From positions 1-64,000 of the forward strand of contig CAYFXC010000004.1 in assembly GCA_964347045.1 (NCBI GenBank): a DNA stretch of 64,000 nucleotides, in the 5' to 3' direction. The position numbers were made by a program, and so were the translations under genes. The DNA is from an uncultured archaeon. GTDB taxonomy: Archaea; Asgardarchaeota; Hermodarchaeia; Hermodarchaeales; Hermodarchaeaceae. How positions within the stretch are numbered: position 1 is the stretch's first letter; each line of letters starts with the position of its first letter. This document shows positions 6,346 to 31,224 of the stretch, piece by piece. Below the pieces are notes generated by a model. That model was not told the DNA's origin and searched no databases. It was given only the letters and a program-made list of their open reading frames with translations.

Positions 6346-7398
6346 ATGATTCACCAACTGTATCATTTTCACAAAAATGGACTAGTGTTAACGTCAGTGG
6401 GATTTGGTTCTATGGAAGTGGATGTTAGCCCTGAACTAGTCTCGGGATTTCTTTCAGCATTGCGTATGTTTGGGCAGGACCTCCTTGCCGATGATGTCAC
6501 CACTATTGAAACAGGTAATTTCCAATTTGTTTGGGATTTTGCAGATCCAGTTCTCAGTGTTGCACTTGCTGATCGAGAAGATGATGATGTTTCAATAATG
6601 GCAGTTTTAAAAACCCTAAACGCTTTGTTCCTTGACCGATATCAAAAAGAACTCAGCCTCTGGACAGGAGAAATCGCCCCCTTTCGAAATTTCGATCCTG
6701 TTGCCCGAGAGGTCGTACAAGATTATCTGCCAACCTTTGAAAAACCTCTGGAAACAACAGAACTGCGTCCTGCAATAATTCGACTTTGGCGACGATTCGG
6801 ACCAGGTCTGGATATACTCCTATATGGTCTTCTTCGGGGTGCACCAATCCTTACAGTAGGACGAAAATCAAGAAATCAATCGGTTATCCAAGCACTTCAA
6901 ACACTGCGCCGTAGACGAATCCCAGTCATGCACTTTAACGATGCAGGAGCAGCTCTCCAAGTCCTACAAGACCGCCCAGCCAACATGTCCTTCATTCTTA
7001 GCCTCCCCAATCGGGCTTATGAAGAAACTTTCGCCGATTCAGCGAATCAGGGACTTCTTTACATTTGTTTGCTTGTTGAAGAGCATATCGTGTTACCTGT
7101 TGGATTTGAAACCAAACCTCTGAATATCGCTGAAGCTGTTGCCCATGCCGAAAAAGTTCTGGGTGAAAGTGGTGTTGAACTTCGCAATGTCGCTGAAAGA
7201 GCTTTTCTTACAGTGCGAGATCGCATAGATGATGTTGCTAATCTCCTTGCAAACTCGGAAAACCTTCCTGTCGATGAAGCTTCGAAGCTCTTACGATTAT
7301 CGAAAAGCGATTATGCGATTTTTAAAGAATTAGCTGTTGAAGGGGGATATGTGCGTCGTGCCAGAAAAAGAGGCGAACAACAACAAAAACCGGCTTGA
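6346..7398 (+). CDS. Longin-domain protein with DENN-like middle domain and C-terminal wHTH-like segment
   Basis: N-terminus LYHFHKNGLVL…ELVSGFLSALRMF…LFLDRY…W.GE..PFRNF is a typical Asgard longin; aa ~145-185 resemble the start of a cDENN domain. Confidence 0.7.
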   Translation: MIHQLYHFHKNGLVLTSVGFGSMEVDVSPELVSGFLSALRMFGQDLLADDVTTIETGNFQFVWDFADPVLSVALADREDDDVSIMAVLKTLNALFLDRYQKELSLWTGEIAPFRNFDPVAREVVQDYLPTFEKPLETTELRPAIIRLWRRFGPGLDILLYGLLRGAPILTVGRKSRNQSVIQALQTLRRRRIPVMHFNDAGAALQVLQDRPANMSFILSLPNRAYEETFADSANQGLLYICLLVEEHIVLPVGFETKPLNIAEAVAHAEKVLGESGVELRNVAERAFLTVRDRIDDVANLLANSENLPVDEASKLLRLSKSDYAIFKELAVEGGYVRRARKRGEQQQKPA

Positions 7399-7420
7399 AG
7401 AAGATCTTCTCGTCTTTGAA

Positions 7421-7891
7421 ATGATTCACGCCCTTCCAAAGCACTATTTCGACTTGATGAACAAGGGAAGTGAATTAGCGAAGCACGGTAAATTTTTAGA
7501 AGCCGCACAACGTTTTGAGGAAGCACGAAAAGAAGTAGGAAAGATTATTCAGCAACTCCTCGAAATGCCAAAAGATCCCACCTCGCAAATGTGGCAATTT
7601 TTTGGTATACTATGGGCCTTTAAACTCATCAAAAGTGCGTTCTACTGGTTCCTAGCGAAAAGTGAAACAGTTGAAACGGCAAAACAACGTAAAGAGTTAC
7701 TGATGGCGGCTGTGGGAGCACAACAGATCGGAGCTGATTTAATTCCAGCCTTCGAAACCCTGAACGAAAGTTTCAAGGGTGAAGACCGTGAGCTTCTACC
7801 GATGCTTGGGGAAGCAATTCGAAACTTCGAAGAACGACAACGGGTTTTAGATAAAGCCCTAGAAGAACAAGGCCTGGATTTTCAAATATAG
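7421..7891 (+). CDS. Hypothetical all-helical protein (N-terminal TPR/MIT-like helix pair)
   Basis: KGSELAKHGKFLEAAQRFEEA; ATG 7421 avoids overlap with the upstream gene. Confidence 0.55.
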   Translation: MIHALPKHYFDLMNKGSELAKHGKFLEAAQRFEEARKEVGKIIQQLLEMPKDPTSQMWQFFGILWAFKLIKSAFYWFLAKSETVETAKQRKELLMAAVGAQQIGADLIPAFETLNESFKGEDRELLPMLGEAIRNFEERQRVLDKALEEQGLDFQI

Positions 7892-8951: not shown

Positions 8952-9125
8952 GTTTGATCACATCATTTTATTGAAGACTTGGATGAAATAAGTTCTCTAA
9001 AAGTTTACGTGTTGTGAATCCTAGCAATTTAAGGTTGGAAAAGGGAGTGCAAGCGGAATTTATAAACTGTTGTGCCAAATATGAGGTATTGCAGCGGAGT
9101 ACTACTGGATATCGGAGGAATACTC

Positions 9126-9512
9126 ATGCCTTCCACGTTAGATTCGCTCACAGAAATTTTAGAAGAACTAAACAAAACAGGTCGAGTAAAGGCAAGTATT
9201 GTCGCAACTGATGAGGGATTTGTTATTGCTTCAGCTGTTAGGCGCGGGGTCGATGAAAAGGTCGCGGCAGCTATGGGAAGTTTTGTTTTCAATACCGCGG
9301 ATAGAGCAAGAGATGAACTCAAGTTAGGTAGGATTCGTGATATTACTATCCGGTGTGAAAAGGGTTCATTAGTTTGTAAGTCGACCTTCTTAGAGGATGA
9401 ACGTCCGGTTGTTTTAGCAGCATTGGTTCCTCGAACCACAAGATTCTACATTCGAGAAGTTAACAAAGCCCTACGAGAAATCCGGGAAGTACTTCGAGAG
9501 CTGGAGATTTAA
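9126..9512 (+). CDS. Roadblock/LC7 domain protein
   Basis: VKASIVATDEGFVIAS…VAAAM…A.RA..EL..G; GGAGG RBS before ATG 9126. Confidence 0.9.
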   Translation: MPSTLDSLTEILEELNKTGRVKASIVATDEGFVIASAVRRGVDEKVAAAMGSFVFNTADRARDELKLGRIRDITIRCEKGSLVCKSTFLEDERPVVLAALVPRTTRFYIREVNKALREIREVLRELEI

Positions 9513-9584: not shown

Positions 9585-10289
9585 GTGCTCTCCTCGATCA
9601 ACAATGGATCCCAGCTTCGAAGCTTCTTGCTTGCAACCAAGGGTCAAACATCGTTTGAAACCTTTCAACTTCCAAAGATTGCCCAAGATCCAATTTTTCT
9701 TCATTCCCTAGAATCGGTGCACCTAATCCAAAAAAAGGAGCACCATTGGCTATTTCCTGGCTATGCTAAGGTTCGAGTGGCAATTCGTGCGTTACAATTA
9801 GGTGAGTCAAATCGACTGATACTTACATCCTTGACGTGGCAGGAGTTTGAGGAATTTGTAGCGCAGATACTTTCAGCTCATGGTTTCCAAGTTCGACATC
9901 GATTTCGATATACGACAACCCGCCGATATGAAATCGACATTCTCGCAGGACGTCAGCCGGTGTTATTTTGTATTGATTGCAAACAGTATGGAGTGCGATT
10001 AGGAAAAGCTGCAAGCCTTAGAACGGCCTCTGAAGAACAATTCCAACGGACTCAAGCTCTTGCGCGAAATTTCGTAAAATTCCAAGCAGATCTCGGTTTT
10101 TTGGATTGGCCAGACATTATCCTAATTCCAATGCTTGTGACCTTACTTACTGAGGACATTCAATTTCATGATCGAGTTCCCATAATTCCTGCGTCTCTTT
10201 TCAATGCCTTTCTTCTCGGGTATGAAGAACAGATGGATACTTTATGCACTATTCAACCTAATTTAGGACGGCAACAACGCCTTATTTGA
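9585..10289 (+). CDS. Mrr-like PD-(D/E)xK endonuclease
   Basis: WQEFEEFVAQIL…EIDILA…IDCKQY. Confidence 0.8.
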   Translation: MLSSINNGSQLRSFLLATKGQTSFETFQLPKIAQDPIFLHSLESVHLIQKKEHHWLFPGYAKVRVAIRALQLGESNRLILTSLTWQEFEEFVAQILSAHGFQVRHRFRYTTTRRYEIDILAGRQPVLFCIDCKQYGVRLGKAASLRTASEEQFQRTQALARNFVKFQADLGFLDWPDIILIPMLVTLLTEDIQFHDRVPIIPASLFNAFLLGYEEQMDTLCTIQPNLGRQQRLI

Positions 10290-10629
10290 GAAGCCGAGGA
10301 CTTCCTCCATTTTTCGCAATTGCACAGTTTAGAATCCAAAGAAAATCTTCAAGAAGGACCAACATGCGATCCAAGTTTTGATGCGACCTAGATGTAAGCA
10401 TTGAACCACTTTCGTTGATAATAGCATGTCCTTCATCGATAAGGAAAGCTTGAATTAGTTCAAGATTATGGAAAAGAGTATCAAGTTGGCTAAGCCGGTC
10501 TTGAATAATTCTTTTCTCTCCAATACCACGTCCTGGTCCCCGACGCTTTCGCTGTTTGGTGAACTTTTCCAATTCGATAATTTTTGATGCTGTGGGAGTT
10601 TCAAGGGGTTTGGTCATTTTAATCCTCAT
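10282..10629 (-). CDS. Hypothetical protein
   Basis: Begins 10 nt downstream of 10639..12402 on the same strand. Confidence 0.5.
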   Translation of the reverse strand: MRIKMTKPLETPTASKIIELEKFTKQRKRRGPGRGIGEKRIIQDRLSQLDTLFHNLELIQAFLIDEGHAIINESGSMLTSRSHQNLDRMLVLLEDFLWILNCAIAKNGGSPRLLK

Positions 10630-10638
10630 AGAAATTAA

Positions 10639-12402
10639 TTAGCTTGTAAATTGAATGCGTTCGTTTTCCAGTAGATCTCGGTTTTGAGATTCCACATGGT
10701 CAAAAGCTGTTGGGAAGTATTCTCGGAACCATTGCCATTGTCCCATTTCGAAATTAAATTTACAACGCTGACGAACTTGAGGAATGATGAAATCTTTTGC
10801 ACCGTTTCCATAGAATATCGCAGCGTCGAATTCATTCTGTTCTAGAAACAGATGATTGAGCTCTCGACCTACTCTGATAGCTACTCCGGTGGGTAACCCA
10901 AAGGCAACTATACATCCAGGTGTAGGATGTTTGAATACTGATCCACCGAATAGAGGTGCTTCTCGACAGCCAGCTAGGAAATTCCAAACGATCTCATCAC
11001 TTCCTTCAAGGATTATGAATAGCGTTTCATTTAATCCAAGATGATACATGGATAAATCGGGGCGATCAAAGAGTACTTGCTGTTTGAAAAGCGACTTGAG
11101 GTGACGACGGATTACATGAACAGATTCTCCAAGGAGAAGCGCCAAATCCTCTGCTGTATTAACCGGGGTGACGTGGGCTAAGAGACGATAGGCAATAGGG
11201 TCCAAATCTGCTGGTTCAATATTGGGCTCATCATATTCGTAAATATAAGGTTGGGTTAACACTTCGCCGTAACCTTCTTGAATTAGCACATCTCGTATGT
11301 ATCGAATCCATGCGACCCAACGAAACCGTTCTGCAATGGGGATATCAGCTTTGTGGGCAAGATAACTTCGGAGATTATAACCATTGAAGACGCCACTCAA
11401 TTGATAAAAGCGATACCGGGTTAGATGCCCAAGACTAACGAGCTCTTGAAGCCATTCTTGAAGCCGTCGAATACGTAAACGGGGAAGCGTATAGCTAAGG
11501 AGATAGGGTGCCCCAGTTCCACCGAACTTGTGAGTTTTTCGAAGATATGGACATTCCTCTAAGTACCGAGATAAACGATTCCCTGGAGCAGGATAGGCAA
11601 GAACCGCTACATGATTCAAGCGTATCCGAGGGTAATTCACACGATAAAACTTAGAGAGGAGTAATTTCTCTCGAAATTTAGTCATATAATTACTTAGTGA
11701 CCCAATAGAGTATGAGGAGATTTTTTGTAATTCACGGAGAGAAGCGGTTGGGTTTTCTTGGATCAGGTGAAGGACTAGCAATTCTTGCTCATTCAGAGGC
11801 GACGCATAGTTTAACATGAACGTTTCGAGTAAATCGACATATTCACGTGATGAGAGTGGCTTAAACGCAGGTTCAAGCTCATCAAAAAAAGGGAGTATAC
11901 GACGAAGAAAAGTTCCCTGGGTTACACGATTGAAAAGGGGAAAGGAAAATGGAGCATTATATTCAACATCTCCGTAGTACCGACTTGGAGATACCACTTG
12001 CCATAGTTTCAAAAATGATTCATGATTGTTCTCGTTGGTATGTTGATATGCACACAGAAGTCCCAAGTCACCACTTTCGGGCACAACTTTGACAACAGGG
12101 GGAAGCATGATGGTATACATTTCTCGGTAAAGGACAGTTTCAAGAAGAAGAGGACGATTTACAAGTTGTGATGCTATACTCAATTTCTTCTCTTCATAAT
12201 TTCCACAAAACCGTGGACTAATTAGAGCATCATCTTCATAAAACTGGATTCGATTTGGTAATGGCGGAACACGCCCTGTTAATCGCATAATCTTGGTCTG
12301 AATAGTTTTCAGCCGTTTTTTGATTTCGTGTCGGTGGTGTCGACGTTGATTTGCACTGAGCTGTTTTTTCCTAGGCTGTTGTGTACGTGTCGTCTTTGCC
12401 AA
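10639..12402 (-). CDS. Large multi-domain wHTH / Lrp-AsnC-like putative DNA-binding protein
   Basis: Two wHTH segments (NPTASLRELQKISSYSIGSL; TAEDLALLLGESVHVIRRHL), each followed by an alpha/beta RAM-like region; basic N-terminus. Confidence 0.6.
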   Translation of the reverse strand: MAKTTRTQQPRKKQLSANQRRHHRHEIKKRLKTIQTKIMRLTGRVPPLPNRIQFYEDDALISPRFCGNYEEKKLSIASQLVNRPLLLETVLYREMYTIMLPPVVKVVPESGDLGLLCAYQHTNENNHESFLKLWQVVSPSRYYGDVEYNAPFSFPLFNRVTQGTFLRRILPFFDELEPAFKPLSSREYVDLLETFMLNYASPLNEQELLVLHLIQENPTASLRELQKISSYSIGSLSNYMTKFREKLLLSKFYRVNYPRIRLNHVAVLAYPAPGNRLSRYLEECPYLRKTHKFGGTGAPYLLSYTLPRLRIRRLQEWLQELVSLGHLTRYRFYQLSGVFNGYNLRSYLAHKADIPIAERFRWVAWIRYIRDVLIQEGYGEVLTQPYIYEYDEPNIEPADLDPIAYRLLAHVTPVNTAEDLALLLGESVHVIRRHLKSLFKQQVLFDRPDLSMYHLGLNETLFIILEGSDEIVWNFLAGCREAPLFGGSVFKHPTPGCIVAFGLPTGVAIRVGRELNHLFLEQNEFDAAIFYGNGAKDFIIPQVRQRCKFNFEMGQWQWFREYFPTAFDHVESQNRDLLENERIQFTS

Positions 12403-12692
12403 GCCATGATTCGCCCCCTGCTCGGCAATTGCCCTATGAAAGGGCGAAAATTCCCTGAAAGGTATTTAAAGTCCACGATTGATGTTAAAAGAACAAAGGA
12501 AAATCAATTAAACCAGCTATTTAAGTTAGATTAGACCCAAAAAATCATTTAAAGCGTTTTTAGTAGAGTTGGAAGAAAAATAACAGCTTAGAAAACAATG
12601 AGCATCATCTCTTTTCTTGAGCTATCGTCGCTGATGAGATAATTCTTTCAAATGGAAAAATTATCCCAAGATATTACTATCATAAAAAAGAA

Positions 12693-13658
12693 CTATTGCT
12701 GGGTTCGTCGAGTAAGGGGATGGACTTCGCAAGTTCTATTTTTACAAGTTGTGCATTCTGAACTTTGATGAACCCAAAACTCATCAAATCGTTTGGTAAA
12801 TTGATCTACAAAATCAAAGTTGTTAGTCCATGTAGCTTGTTCACCGATTCCAGAAAGGCCTTTGGCTGTGAAATTGGCGCTGCCTTCGAGAACCTCTGTT
12901 TCATCTATGATGAGAGCTTTGATATGCATTTGTGCGCAGACTAGTATTTCGATATCAGGCGCATCTTGTAGGAGCGTTTCAACGGCTTCTTGAAAGTGTT
13001 TGGAAGCTGCCCCAAAAGCTTCAGGTTCACGAATAATAATTCGAACCTTTATGCCCTCTTTTGCTTTCTCAACCAACCGACCAATGAGGTTGACTTCGCA
13101 GGATTCGGTGCCAACGGTGACAGTCTTGACATCTGTTAAATTTTGAACCATGATTCGAATACTTCGGGTCGCTTTATCGAGCATTTCAGCGAGGGTGCAA
13201 GCAATAGAAATTCCATTAAGTAATTGATGATGGGGGAAACTTTCAATGGTTGAACTTTCAGGAGAAGGTTCGTCTTTGACTATATCACCAAGTTCTTCGG
13301 AAACTTCTTCTTCAGGGAGCAAAGTTTCTCTGTCATTATCAGACAAAGGTAGAGGAGGCTCCTCGCCTTCAGGGAAGAAACTATCTAGGGCATCCACAAG
13401 ACGTATGGGAAGAGGTTCTTCTTTCCGAAGTGCTTTGGTGATCTCAACTAGACTCCGTGCCCGTTGATAGGCAAGTTTTGAAGCAGATCCAGAGGAATGC
13501 TTTGCTATTTCATTGAAAGCTTCTGCAGCGTTAAGAGCCGCATTGGAAGCTCGTTGAAAATCACCCTGGCTCATGAACTTTCGAATTAAAAGCAAAGCCT
13601 CCTTTGCAACGCGACCAAGCCGAGTTGTAGTCACAAATAACCCTCTAATATTAATCAA
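12693..13658 (-). CDS. Phospholipase D (single HKD) domain protein with N-terminal MIT-like helical bundle and C-terminal C3H motif
   Basis: HIKALIIDETEVLEGSANFT; CTTCKNRTCEVH; acidic linker; likely start GTG 13634. Confidence 0.8.
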   Translation of the reverse strand: MINIRGLFVTTTRLGRVAKEALLLIRKFMSQGDFQRASNAALNAAEAFNEIAKHSSGSASKLAYQRARSLVEITKALRKEEPLPIRLVDALDSFFPEGEEPPLPLSDNDRETLLPEEEVSEELGDIVKDEPSPESSTIESFPHHQLLNGISIACTLAEMLDKATRSIRIMVQNLTDVKTVTVGTESCEVNLIGRLVEKAKEGIKVRIIIREPEAFGAASKHFQEAVETLLQDAPDIEILVCAQMHIKALIIDETEVLEGSANFTAKGLSGIGEQATWTNNFDFVDQFTKRFDEFWVHQSSECTTCKNRTCEVHPLTRRTQQ

Positions 13659-29996: not shown

Positions 29997-30124
29997 CGTA
30001 GATGACCTCGTAATTATTTTACAGTCATGAAGTATAAAGGGTTAATGGGCGTTCTACTCTAAATGAATTTAAGCGTTTCTCTTCTCAATCAATATGAGCA
30101 TTAACGAAGCTGGAGCGTGGAGCC

Positions 30125-30553
30125 TTGTTCGAACAAATCGTACCTTGTGTGGGTGCAGTTATCCTCGATGAACAAAATCGAGTTCTTCTCGTAAAACACG
30201 TGCAAGAGAAAGGTGGCTTTTGGAAAGACAAATACATTTGTCCCGGAGGACGACTTGAATTTGGCGAATCCTTGGAAGCAGGTATACGTCGGGAAATTCT
30301 TGAAGAAACCGGATTAGAGATTGAAATATTACGTTGGGTACGACCCATGGAACGAATGATCCGAAACGCCGATAACACCCTACAAGAGCATATTCTGTAT
30401 CTGGACGTTATTGCTAGAGTTAAACATGGAAAATTTAAACCTGCATCAGATGTGGGAGAGGGGGGGTGGTTTTCAAAAGACGACCTTTTAACAATACAGA
30501 AAGAAATACACGAAGACACTCAAGAACTCTTGAAAGAGGTAGAATTACTTTAG
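30125..30553 (+). CDS. NUDIX hydrolase
   Basis: Nudix box GGRLEFGESLEAGIRREILEETG. Confidence 0.9.
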   Translation: MFEQIVPCVGAVILDEQNRVLLVKHVQEKGGFWKDKYICPGGRLEFGESLEAGIRREILEETGLEIEILRWVRPMERMIRNADNTLQEHILYLDVIARVKHGKFKPASDVGEGGWFSKDDLLTIQKEIHEDTQELLKEVELL

Positions 30554-31093
30554 ATACTTTTTGAAATGTTCTTTGAGTTCAGAAGGATGTTTTAAAATTG
30601 TCATTCCTTTCATCGCACGAAGCCTTTCAACATTCTCTAAATCTACTTCTCGGGTCGTTAATTCCATTTTCTCTCCACTTGGTAAAATAGTAGTTACTGT
30701 CCCCCGTTTTTGATCTACGGGGTATATGTATATTGGGACTGCGGTTTTCATGGCTTGAGCCACCGCGTTGGTTACAAGCGTATCGGCAATACCATAAGCA
30801 ATTTTTGCCACAGTATTGGCAGTTGCAGGCATAACAAGGAGAAATTGATAGGTGCCTTTTTGGAGTGCCCCTGCAATGAATGGGGTGTTGGCGTCAATTT
30901 CTGTTCGGACCTTTGGAGAAATGGCTTCCAATTCTTTCCACAATTTATACCATTTGATAACTTGCAGACCCCCCTTTGATAAAAACACCAGAACTTTCGC
31001 ATCATGTTCAGCCAAGATTTCTTTTAGGACCTGAACAGATTCCCGTAAGTAGTCCCCTGCACCTGTAATTGCCCATGCAAATTTCACAGACAT
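30545..31093 (-). CDS. afpA: Archaeoflavoprotein AfpA
   Basis: AWAITGAG, PATANTVAKIAYGIADTLVTN, PVDQ. Confidence 0.85.
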   Translation of the reverse strand: MSVKFAWAITGAGDYLRESVQVLKEILAEHDAKVLVFLSKGGLQVIKWYKLWKELEAISPKVRTEIDANTPFIAGALQKGTYQFLLVMPATANTVAKIAYGIADTLVTNAVAQAMKTAVPIYIYPVDQKRGTVTTILPSGEKMELTTREVDLENVERLRAMKGMTILKHPSELKEHFKKYLK

Positions 31094-31224
31094 CGATAAT
31101 CACTCCGTAATTAGAGATATGCTAGTGCTTACTGCCTTTTTGGGTTATTTCTTTCGCTAAGATTGAATTTAGCTTCCTTTTTGATAATCGAAAACTTAGA
31201 TAAAATGGGAACCTATCCATAGCA

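Follow-up and report, generated by a model that had tools for sequence, protein, structure and literature searches.

A diverged MIT-like module predicted to tether a Nuc-type HKD phosphodiesterase to ESCRT-III in an Asgard archaeal family

The window analysed here is the stretch of 64,000 nucleotides (nt) at positions 1 to 64,000 of contig CAYFXC010000004.1, from an uncultured archaeon of the Hermodarchaeaceae (Asgardarchaeota), and its subject is a minus-strand gene whose product combines an N-terminal helical module with a C-terminal phospholipase D (PLD)-fold domain and may be recruited to the membrane-scission protein ESCRT-III. An open reading frame (ORF) is present at 12693..13658 on this strand. 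The sequence-only reading of the window had implied a TTG start at 13658, which lies eight codons too early: 24 out of 24 aligned homologs begin 8 codons inside the ORF, at the equivalent of MSTTRLG, and the sequence GAGGG (13641-13645) is placed 6 nt upstream of the GTG at 13634, so that the protein is taken to have 313 amino acids (aa). The protein of this window and its homologs are called family A throughout, and the homologous groups that share the PLD domain and a cysteine knuckle are called families B, C and D. A search of 5.8 billion clustered proteins yielded 48 clusters of family A at 90% identity, all of them from Asgard metagenome-assembled genomes (MAGs) labelled Promethearchaeota, Hermodarchaeota or Thorarchaeota, so that the gene is genuine and conserved and the ORF has not arisen by chance. 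Among 201 sampled genomes of the phylum, full-length family A was confined to the window's own taxonomic family, where it was found in 17 out of 18 genomes (13/14 in genus g1 and 4/4 in genus g10). Judged by its sequence and its structural models, the protein is most likely a two-module enzyme, in which a diverged MIT domain is connected by an acidic disordered tether to a single-HKD phosphodiesterase of the Nuc/NucT type. The features of the gene are as follows.

12693..13634, minus strand: the complete PLD gene, 313 aa plus stop, with its GTG start at 13634.
13425..13628, minus strand: MIT-like three-helix bundle, residues 3-70 (AlphaFold2, Foldseek, VIA and hhalign).
13371..13415, minus strand: PLPxxLVxALDxFxP segment forming a short helix 4, residues 74-88 (modelled helix 77-85).
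13233..13370, minus strand: acidic, Pro/Glu-rich disordered linker, residues 89-134 (model confidence and composition).
12765..13232, minus strand: single-HKD PLD-fold domain (PLDc_2), residues 135-290 (Pfam PF13091, E 1e-16).
12873..12926, minus strand: HxK(x4)D(x6)GSxN motif with H237, K239, D244, G251, S252 and N254 (verified translation).
12720..12755, minus strand: CxxCx4CxxH knuckle with C294, C297, C302 and H305, followed by a basic tail (conserved).

The C-terminal domain matched PLDc_2 with 61.5 bits (cut-off 27) over profile positions 2-132 of 132 and was modelled by AlphaFold2 as an alpha/beta domain at residues 136-288. The stretch HIKALIIDETEVLEGSAN at 12873-12926 contains the complete HxK(x4)D(x6)GSxN motif; K, S and N are invariant in the 24 homologs, of which at least 90% keep H, D and G, in agreement with the intact single HKD motif that had been read from the window alone. 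The best fold match of the domain was NucT (6ehi; Z 17.2, root-mean-square deviation (rmsd) 2.0, 140/159 residues), followed by Nuc (1byr, Z 16.5), FAM83B, Zucchini (Z 15.0) and TrmBL2, and both structure search programs used, Foldseek and VIA, placed minimal single-HKD nucleases first. When the family profile was compared with the sequences of the PDB, Zucchini/PLD6 (2e-5) and Nuc (7e-5) were found. By motif, profile and modelled fold, the C-terminal module is assigned to the Nuc-type HKD branch of the PLD superfamily. Nuc, NucT and Zucchini/PLD6 are single-HKD homodimeric nucleases, and by analogy the enzyme should act as a homodimer and its substrate is most likely nucleic acid. Family A shares with Nuc (1byr), NucT (6ehi) and Zucchini/PLD6 (4ggj) the minimal fold (Z 15-17), one HKD motif per chain and all catalytic positions, but adds the MIT-like module, the acidic tether and the Cys3His knuckle, and it carries neither a signal peptide nor a membrane anchor.

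The PLD domain is followed by the CxxCx4CxxH tail CTTCKNRTCEVH at 12720-12755. This element, likewise described from the sequence beforehand, is kept by at least 90% of the family A members; its three cysteines are invariant in family B and are also present in families C and D. The Cys3His knuckle presumably binds zinc, and the low confidence of the model in the C-terminal tail is attributed to the fact that no metal was modelled. Together with the basic tail, the knuckle looks like a nucleic-acid-binding element. The fold leaves some room for another substrate: the domain also matched PLD1/2, phosphatidylserine synthase and vaccinia F13 at Z 13-16, the PDB entries of Zucchini/PLD6 are titled 'cardiolipin hydrolase', and the PLD fold of human MITD1 binds membranes, as stated in the title of Hadders 2012, which PMC9477494 cites. 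An enzyme recruited to ESCRT-III in the same way could then be a phospholipase or transphosphatidylase that remodels the head groups of membrane lipids at scission sites. We consider this improbable, as NucT and Nuc, both minimal single-HKD nucleases, gave the best fold matches, the domain-level matches to DpdK and DrmC point to PLD-like components of DNA-targeting defence systems, the knuckle and basic tail have the nucleic-acid-binding appearance mentioned above, and no membrane-binding segment is evident in the protein.

The region in front of the PLD domain consists of a folded and a disordered part. Residues 89-133 were modelled with a predicted local distance difference test (pLDDT) score below 50, and the linker has a family median of 46 aa with 13 D+E, 2 K+R and 5 Pro, as expected from its earlier description as a Pro/Glu-rich acidic linker. 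The linker has changed quickly in evolution, with a pairwise identity of 14%; the N-terminal domain stands at 72%, the PLD domain at 69% and the knuckle at 79%. The N-terminal domain was modelled with AlphaFold2 using the family alignment (all models are monomers) as three helices at residues 3-23, 26-45 and 49-70 with a pLDDT of about 90-95, and when folded alone it reached a pLDDT of 90.5 and a predicted TM score (pTM) of 0.81; the three-helix N-terminus with MIT-like spacing that the sequence-only reading had proposed is thus also seen in the model. The Foldseek comparison with MIT domains suggested in that reading was carried out, and the MIT domain of Sulfolobus Vps4/CdvC (2w2u_A) ranked first (TMt 0.84, rmsd 1.6, 72 columns). 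Much of the remaining list is made up of MIT domains as well, namely those of 2v6y, MITD1 (4a5x), Vps4 (4niq/9bl8/2jq9), NRBF2, spartin and LIP5, and the MIT domain of katanin is also among the structural matches. The PLPxxLVxALDxFxP segment, which forms the modelled helix 4, is conserved in family A. As a separate observation, the loop between helices 2 and 3 carries the sequence AKHSxG (13479-13502, residues 45-52 region), which is invariant in family A and unusual for a MIT loop.

Profile comparisons were used to assess whether the likeness to MIT extends to the sequence, with a reference profile built from 12 Vps4 MIT domains extracted from Asgard relatives. The N-terminal alignment of family A matched this profile with an hhalign probability of 70% (P 4e-5, 60 columns, score 29.7), whereas column shuffles scored 10.8 +/- 2.6 with a maximum of 21.3 in 150 and the reversed profile scored 13.4. 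With an enriched profile, consisting of the family A N-terminal alignment and four divergent copies of the module, the probability increased to 92.4% (P 5e-7). The 68 aligned columns are free of gaps and include all three helices, and the score was 39.2, compared to 10.8 +/- 2.1 for shuffles. Circular-shift controls of hhalign carried no information, since a local alignment survives the shift. Controls with tetratricopeptide repeat (TPR) proteins and a TPR profile were much weaker (P 0.03 to 0.001). Compared to the MIT domain of Vps4/CdvC (2w2u, 2v6y; PF04212), which ranks first in the two structure searches and to which it is similar in profile over all three helices, the family A module lies below the Pfam level, has a longer helix 1, an extra helix 4 and the invariant AKHSxG loop, and is fused to a phosphodiesterase and not to an AAA ATPase.

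The sister families place a three-helix module at the same position. Family B was found in a PLDc_2 search of the same genome as a 274-aa paralog on contig C11 (L025:1336-2160, minus strand), which is homologous to the family A protein (BLASTP 5e-18) in its PLD domain and Cys knuckle. In its about 49 clusters HxN and GTAP invariably replace HxK and GSxN, and its N-terminus matched the Vps4 MIT profile with hhalign at 92% (P 5e-7, z 12); judged by these sequence features, family B probably consists of pseudoenzymes and lies nearer to MITD1 in spirit than family A does. Family C (about 275 aa), a family of Jord-/Freyarchaeia with a short linker, is homologous to the family A protein at E 1e-38 and combines a Pfam MIT match of 36 bits (cut-off 30) with PLDc_2, an intact HSK...D...GSAN motif and CxxCx4C, an arrangement of MIT and PLDc_2 that automated Pfam annotation already displays. 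It was found in 6/6 genomes of another Asgard family, including the closed genome of Ca. Freyarchaeum deiterrae, and also in MAGs labelled Jordarchaeaceae and Lokiarchaeia. Family D (about 400 aa; L057:714-1919, minus strand, and L058:418-1626, plus strand, in Asgard family f16) has an intact HKD motif and the knuckle, and its N-terminal region of ~195 aa is unrelated and showed no MIT similarity in profile comparison. The module is therefore present in three of the four sister families, with a Pfam-grade MIT domain in one. In maximum-likelihood trees of the shared region each of the families A-D is monophyletic, and the uniformly trimmed alignment gave an unrooted split AD|BC of the PLD domain with support of at least 100/95. 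Although no root is established for this tree, rooting it on the long branch of family D would allow a single MIT fusion to explain families A, B and C. Relative to families B and C, family A lies on the other side of the split and has the most diverged MIT module, helix 4 and a long acidic linker. A further PLD protein of the genome is encoded on contig C3 (L024:1420-2385, minus strand); it has 321 aa, with a weak winged helix-turn-helix (wHTH) signal of MarR/TrmB type followed by a PLDc_2 domain that keeps HxK...D, i.e. a TrmB-like layout with an apparently intact HKD motif.

An exhaustive HMMER search with the N-terminal profile in 1.84 billion representatives returned five of them, comprising the family itself, two fragments, a TPR protein and a fusion to a transglutaminase-like domain, and no AAA fusion of the module was found in this search. 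The transglutaminase fusions have 277-279 aa and are encoded in the sister genus g10 at the following loci.

L051:525-1364, minus strand: transglutaminase fusion.
L052:96-929, plus strand: transglutaminase fusion.
L053:809-1642, minus strand: transglutaminase fusion.
L054:637-1470, minus strand: transglutaminase fusion.

In each, the MIT-like module, including helix 4 with its conserved PLPxxLVxALDxFxP segment, is joined by a Pro-rich linker to a transglutaminase-like core (PF01841) that carries what looks like a Cys/His/Asp triad; the AKHSxG loop is different in these copies. The fusion was detected in 4/4 sampled genomes of the genus (E about 1e-16), and the joining of the N-terminal module to a transglutaminase-like core, as read from these sequences, is a new observation. 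A module that is common to two unrelated enzymes behaves like a targeting domain. A parallel is provided by the eukaryotic MIT-PLD and MIT-protease cofactors (PMC9477494), the latter with calpain-7, AMSH and USP8, which dock on ESCRT-III: the g10 proteins likewise combine the module with a papain-like transglutaminase core, but the catalytic families differ.

Several results weigh against a MIT origin of the N-terminus and against its attachment to ESCRT-III. In VIA (48,161 chains) the first rank was again taken by Sulfolobus Vps4/CdvC MIT (2w2u_B; Z 10.6, rmsd 2.0, 73/74 residues), followed by the MIT domains of calpain-7 (Z 10.3), MITD1 (Z 9.8, rmsd 2.3) and VPS4A (Z 9.5), but designed and generic helical bundles lie within 1 Z unit of these matches and Z values below about 13 do not discriminate between helical bundles. 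Pfam MIT (PF04212) matched neither the protein nor its isolated N-terminus, even at E<=10, which leaves the module outside the family as defined by the curated cut-off of 30 bits, and the PLD locus was absent from the genome-wide Pfam MIT candidates. The search of PDB sequences with the N-terminal alignment returned designed helical repeats only, and in the protein atlas residues 1-90 reached scores of at most 0.85, with weak leads to TPR, MIT and katanin-MIT clusters. Since the Vps4 MIT domain itself matched a TPR profile at P 2e-5, the MIT similarity described here is superfamily-grade. Direct profile comparison of the N-termini of families A and B revealed no similarity. Furthermore, the PLD gene and the ESCRT locus are unlinked, lying on different contigs, and helix 4 may occupy one of the grooves used for ligand binding. 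On the other side stand the profile result and the three-helix module found at the same place in three of four sister families, and on these grounds we regard it as very probable that the N-terminus of the family A protein descends from MIT. Two groups of candidates were rejected as further MIT proteins: the two other weak MIT matches of the genome, on contigs C5 and C19, belong to TPR repeat proteins of the ordinary kind, and a helical protein at 7337-7891 (plus strand) of the window aligned over one hairpin with a TPR profile (P 2e-4) but failed to match MIT profiles (P 0.02 to 0.2).

The order of domains recalls human MITD1 (MIT followed by MIT_C; 4a5x is its MIT domain), in which a MIT-type bundle also precedes a PLD fold, and MITD1 is recruited by ESCRT-III tails (PMC9477494). 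Its C-terminal domain corresponds to Pfam MIT_C and lacks the HKD motif (PMC9477494, PMC12065111), whereas family A has PLDc_2, a complete HKD motif, a Nuc-like fold and the Cys3His tail. The MITD1-like architecture claimed in the sequence-only reading is hence retained as an order of domains, and the relationship to MITD1 is not: MIT_C (PF16565) had no match in the protein and none in the genome at E<=10, and MITD1 was absent from the PDB sequence-profile matches of families A and B and from the PLD-domain structural matches that were listed. Because the PLD domain resembles Nuc, NucT and Zucchini and not MIT_C, the likeness to MITD1 is one of layout and not of orthology, and the common layout most likely arose independently. 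That the protein is a direct archaeal ancestor or an ortholog of eukaryotic MITD1 would fit the shared order of MIT and PLD fold, and the loss of the catalytic Lys in family B is what would be expected of a MITD1-like pseudoenzyme; given the missing MIT_C and MITD1 matches and the confinement of the family to a few Asgard lineages, we hold such a direct descent to be very unlikely.

The components on which a MIT-like module could act are encoded in the same genome. As presumed for an Asgard host, it contains Vps4 (MIT 43 bits) and two ESCRT-III genes, which are adjacent to each other on contig C8, at 30031-30522 and 30644-31114. The acidic ESCRT-III tails end in ...RELERLKKEVKE and ...ELEKEIERLKEEG, with short Pro-containing stretches before, and by eye their leucine-rich helices look similar to MIT-interacting motifs (MIMs) of the MIM1/MIM2 types. 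Tails of this kind and their recognition by MIT have been proposed for Asgard ESCRT-III and Vps4 (PMC7240154), and in humans enzymes of various kinds are brought to ESCRT-III by MIT domains (PMC9477494). In the family A protein the N-terminal domain is basic (13 K+R versus 7 D+E in residues 1-75), which would suit the acidic tails. We propose as the likeliest mechanism that the MIT-like bundle docks on the C-terminal MIM-type tails of both ESCRT-III proteins and that docking would concentrate the phosphodiesterase where ESCRT-III polymers assemble, e.g. at division necks or other sites of membrane scission, the 46-residue acidic disordered tether joining the docking module to the enzyme. To this overall explanation, in which a MIT-like module tethers an HKD phosphodiesterase to ESCRT-III, we assign a probability of about 0.5; the binding to ESCRT-III and the cellular role are its conjectural parts. 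The ESCRT-III genes are adjoined by a gene for a 415-aa protein with an N-terminal CxxC pair (L019:124-1371, plus strand, contig C8).

The position of helix 4 bears on the docking. Residues 1-88 aligned in VIA with four-helix up-and-down bundles such as cytochrome b562 (85 residues, rmsd 2.9), and from the alignment with the fourth helix of these bundles helix 4 probably packs on helices 1 and 3. The groove of helices 1/3 is the site for type-2 MIMs (PMC9477494). With helix 4 in this place, the groove between helices 2 and 3 (H2/H3) would stay free.

The genes next to the PLD gene form a block with the following members.

10639-12402, minus strand: 587-aa protein with weak signals of HTH_24/AsnC type.
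10282-10629, minus strand: 115-aa protein without a family match.
9585-10289, plus strand: convergent Mrr_cat/YraN-like protein of the PD-(D/E)xK nuclease fold.
9072-9512, plus strand: Roadblock/LC7 protein.

The order PLD, 587-aa protein, 115-aa protein, Mrr_cat/YraN-like protein and Roadblock protein is kept in 9-12 out of 14 related loci, down to 52% identity. All syntenic genomes are kin within one family, so that the shared gene order says little about functional coupling. The gap between the PLD gene and the 587-aa gene (12403-12692) measures about 290 nt, and about 290-310 nt in most related loci.

This neighbourhood bears on a different fate of the module, in which the N-terminus is derived from MIT but no longer reads ESCRT-III and the nuclease acts in DNA metabolism with its conserved neighbours; after duplication, family B would have kept a canonical MIT domain and family A would have gained helix 4 and a new partner. 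It would account for an N-terminus that, unlike those of families B and C, is beyond detection by Pfam MIT, for the invariant AKHSxG loop and the added conserved helix, and for the synteny with the 587-aa multi-wHTH protein, the 115-aa protein and the Mrr_cat nuclease, which persists in 10-12 out of 14 loci and down to 52% identity. The close kinship of the syntenic genomes and the about 290 nt that separate the PLD gene from its neighbour reduce the weight of the synteny, the match of the enriched profile to Vps4 MIT still extends across all three helices, and none of the tests run pointed to an alternative partner. Taken together, a module that has given up ESCRT-III for DNA metabolism appears rather unlikely.

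The nuclease-fold neighbour and the PLD domain also bring an effector of an anti-virus defence system to mind, in the form of a DrmC/DpdK-like PLD nuclease. Domain-level PADLOC matches were obtained for DrmC (E 3e-11) and DpdK (2e-9), and the Mrr_cat protein gave a weak match resembling type II restriction endonucleases. The corresponding NCBIfam scores remained far below the equivalog cut-offs (30.7 versus 133 bits for DrmC and 35.6 versus 100 for DpdK), no DISARM or Dpd partner genes were found among the neighbours, and the gene sits at a fixed syntenic position in 17/18 of the genomes sampled from its family, which does not resemble a mobile defence island. In view of the sub-equivalog scores and of neighbours without DISARM or Dpd matches, the defence function was rejected as highly improbable.

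Tethering of an HKD phosphodiesterase to ESCRT-III, as favoured here, would extend what has been described for archaea. In the literature searched, no paper was found that describes the family A protein or that combines MITD1 and Asgard archaea, and the archaeal MIT domain is treated only as a part of Vps4/CdvC (PMC10936438, PMC7240154, PMC8970359). In eukaryotes, more than a dozen enzymes with MIT domains are recruited by the ESCRT-III tails, which serve as a hub (PMC9477494). A wider and more tentative possibility, which we rate clearly below an even chance, is a small Asgard 'MIT-MIM code', in which several MIT-type enzymes besides Vps4 would dock on ESCRT-III. Its members would be an active HKD nuclease (families A and C), a degenerate PLD protein (family B) and a transglutaminase-like protease; family A would remove or process nucleic acid where ESCRT-III performs scission, and helix 4 could serve as a built-in pseudo-ligand of the groove between helices 1 and 3 (H1/H3) that gates binding.

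If the binding holds true, MIT-type fusions other than Vps4 in Asgard archaea would put the recruitment of ESCRT-III cofactors before eukaryogenesis. Asgard ESCRT-III has been reported to associate with DNA or chromatin (bioRxiv 10.1101/2021.11.29.470303), and a nuclease placed on ESCRT-III would connect with these reports. The pair of an active and a dead paralog (family A or C versus family B) offers a natural model for the rise of a MITD1-like pseudoenzyme, and the system, made up of a single MIT-like domain, a small nuclease and the tails of two ESCRT-III proteins, would be simple and testable.

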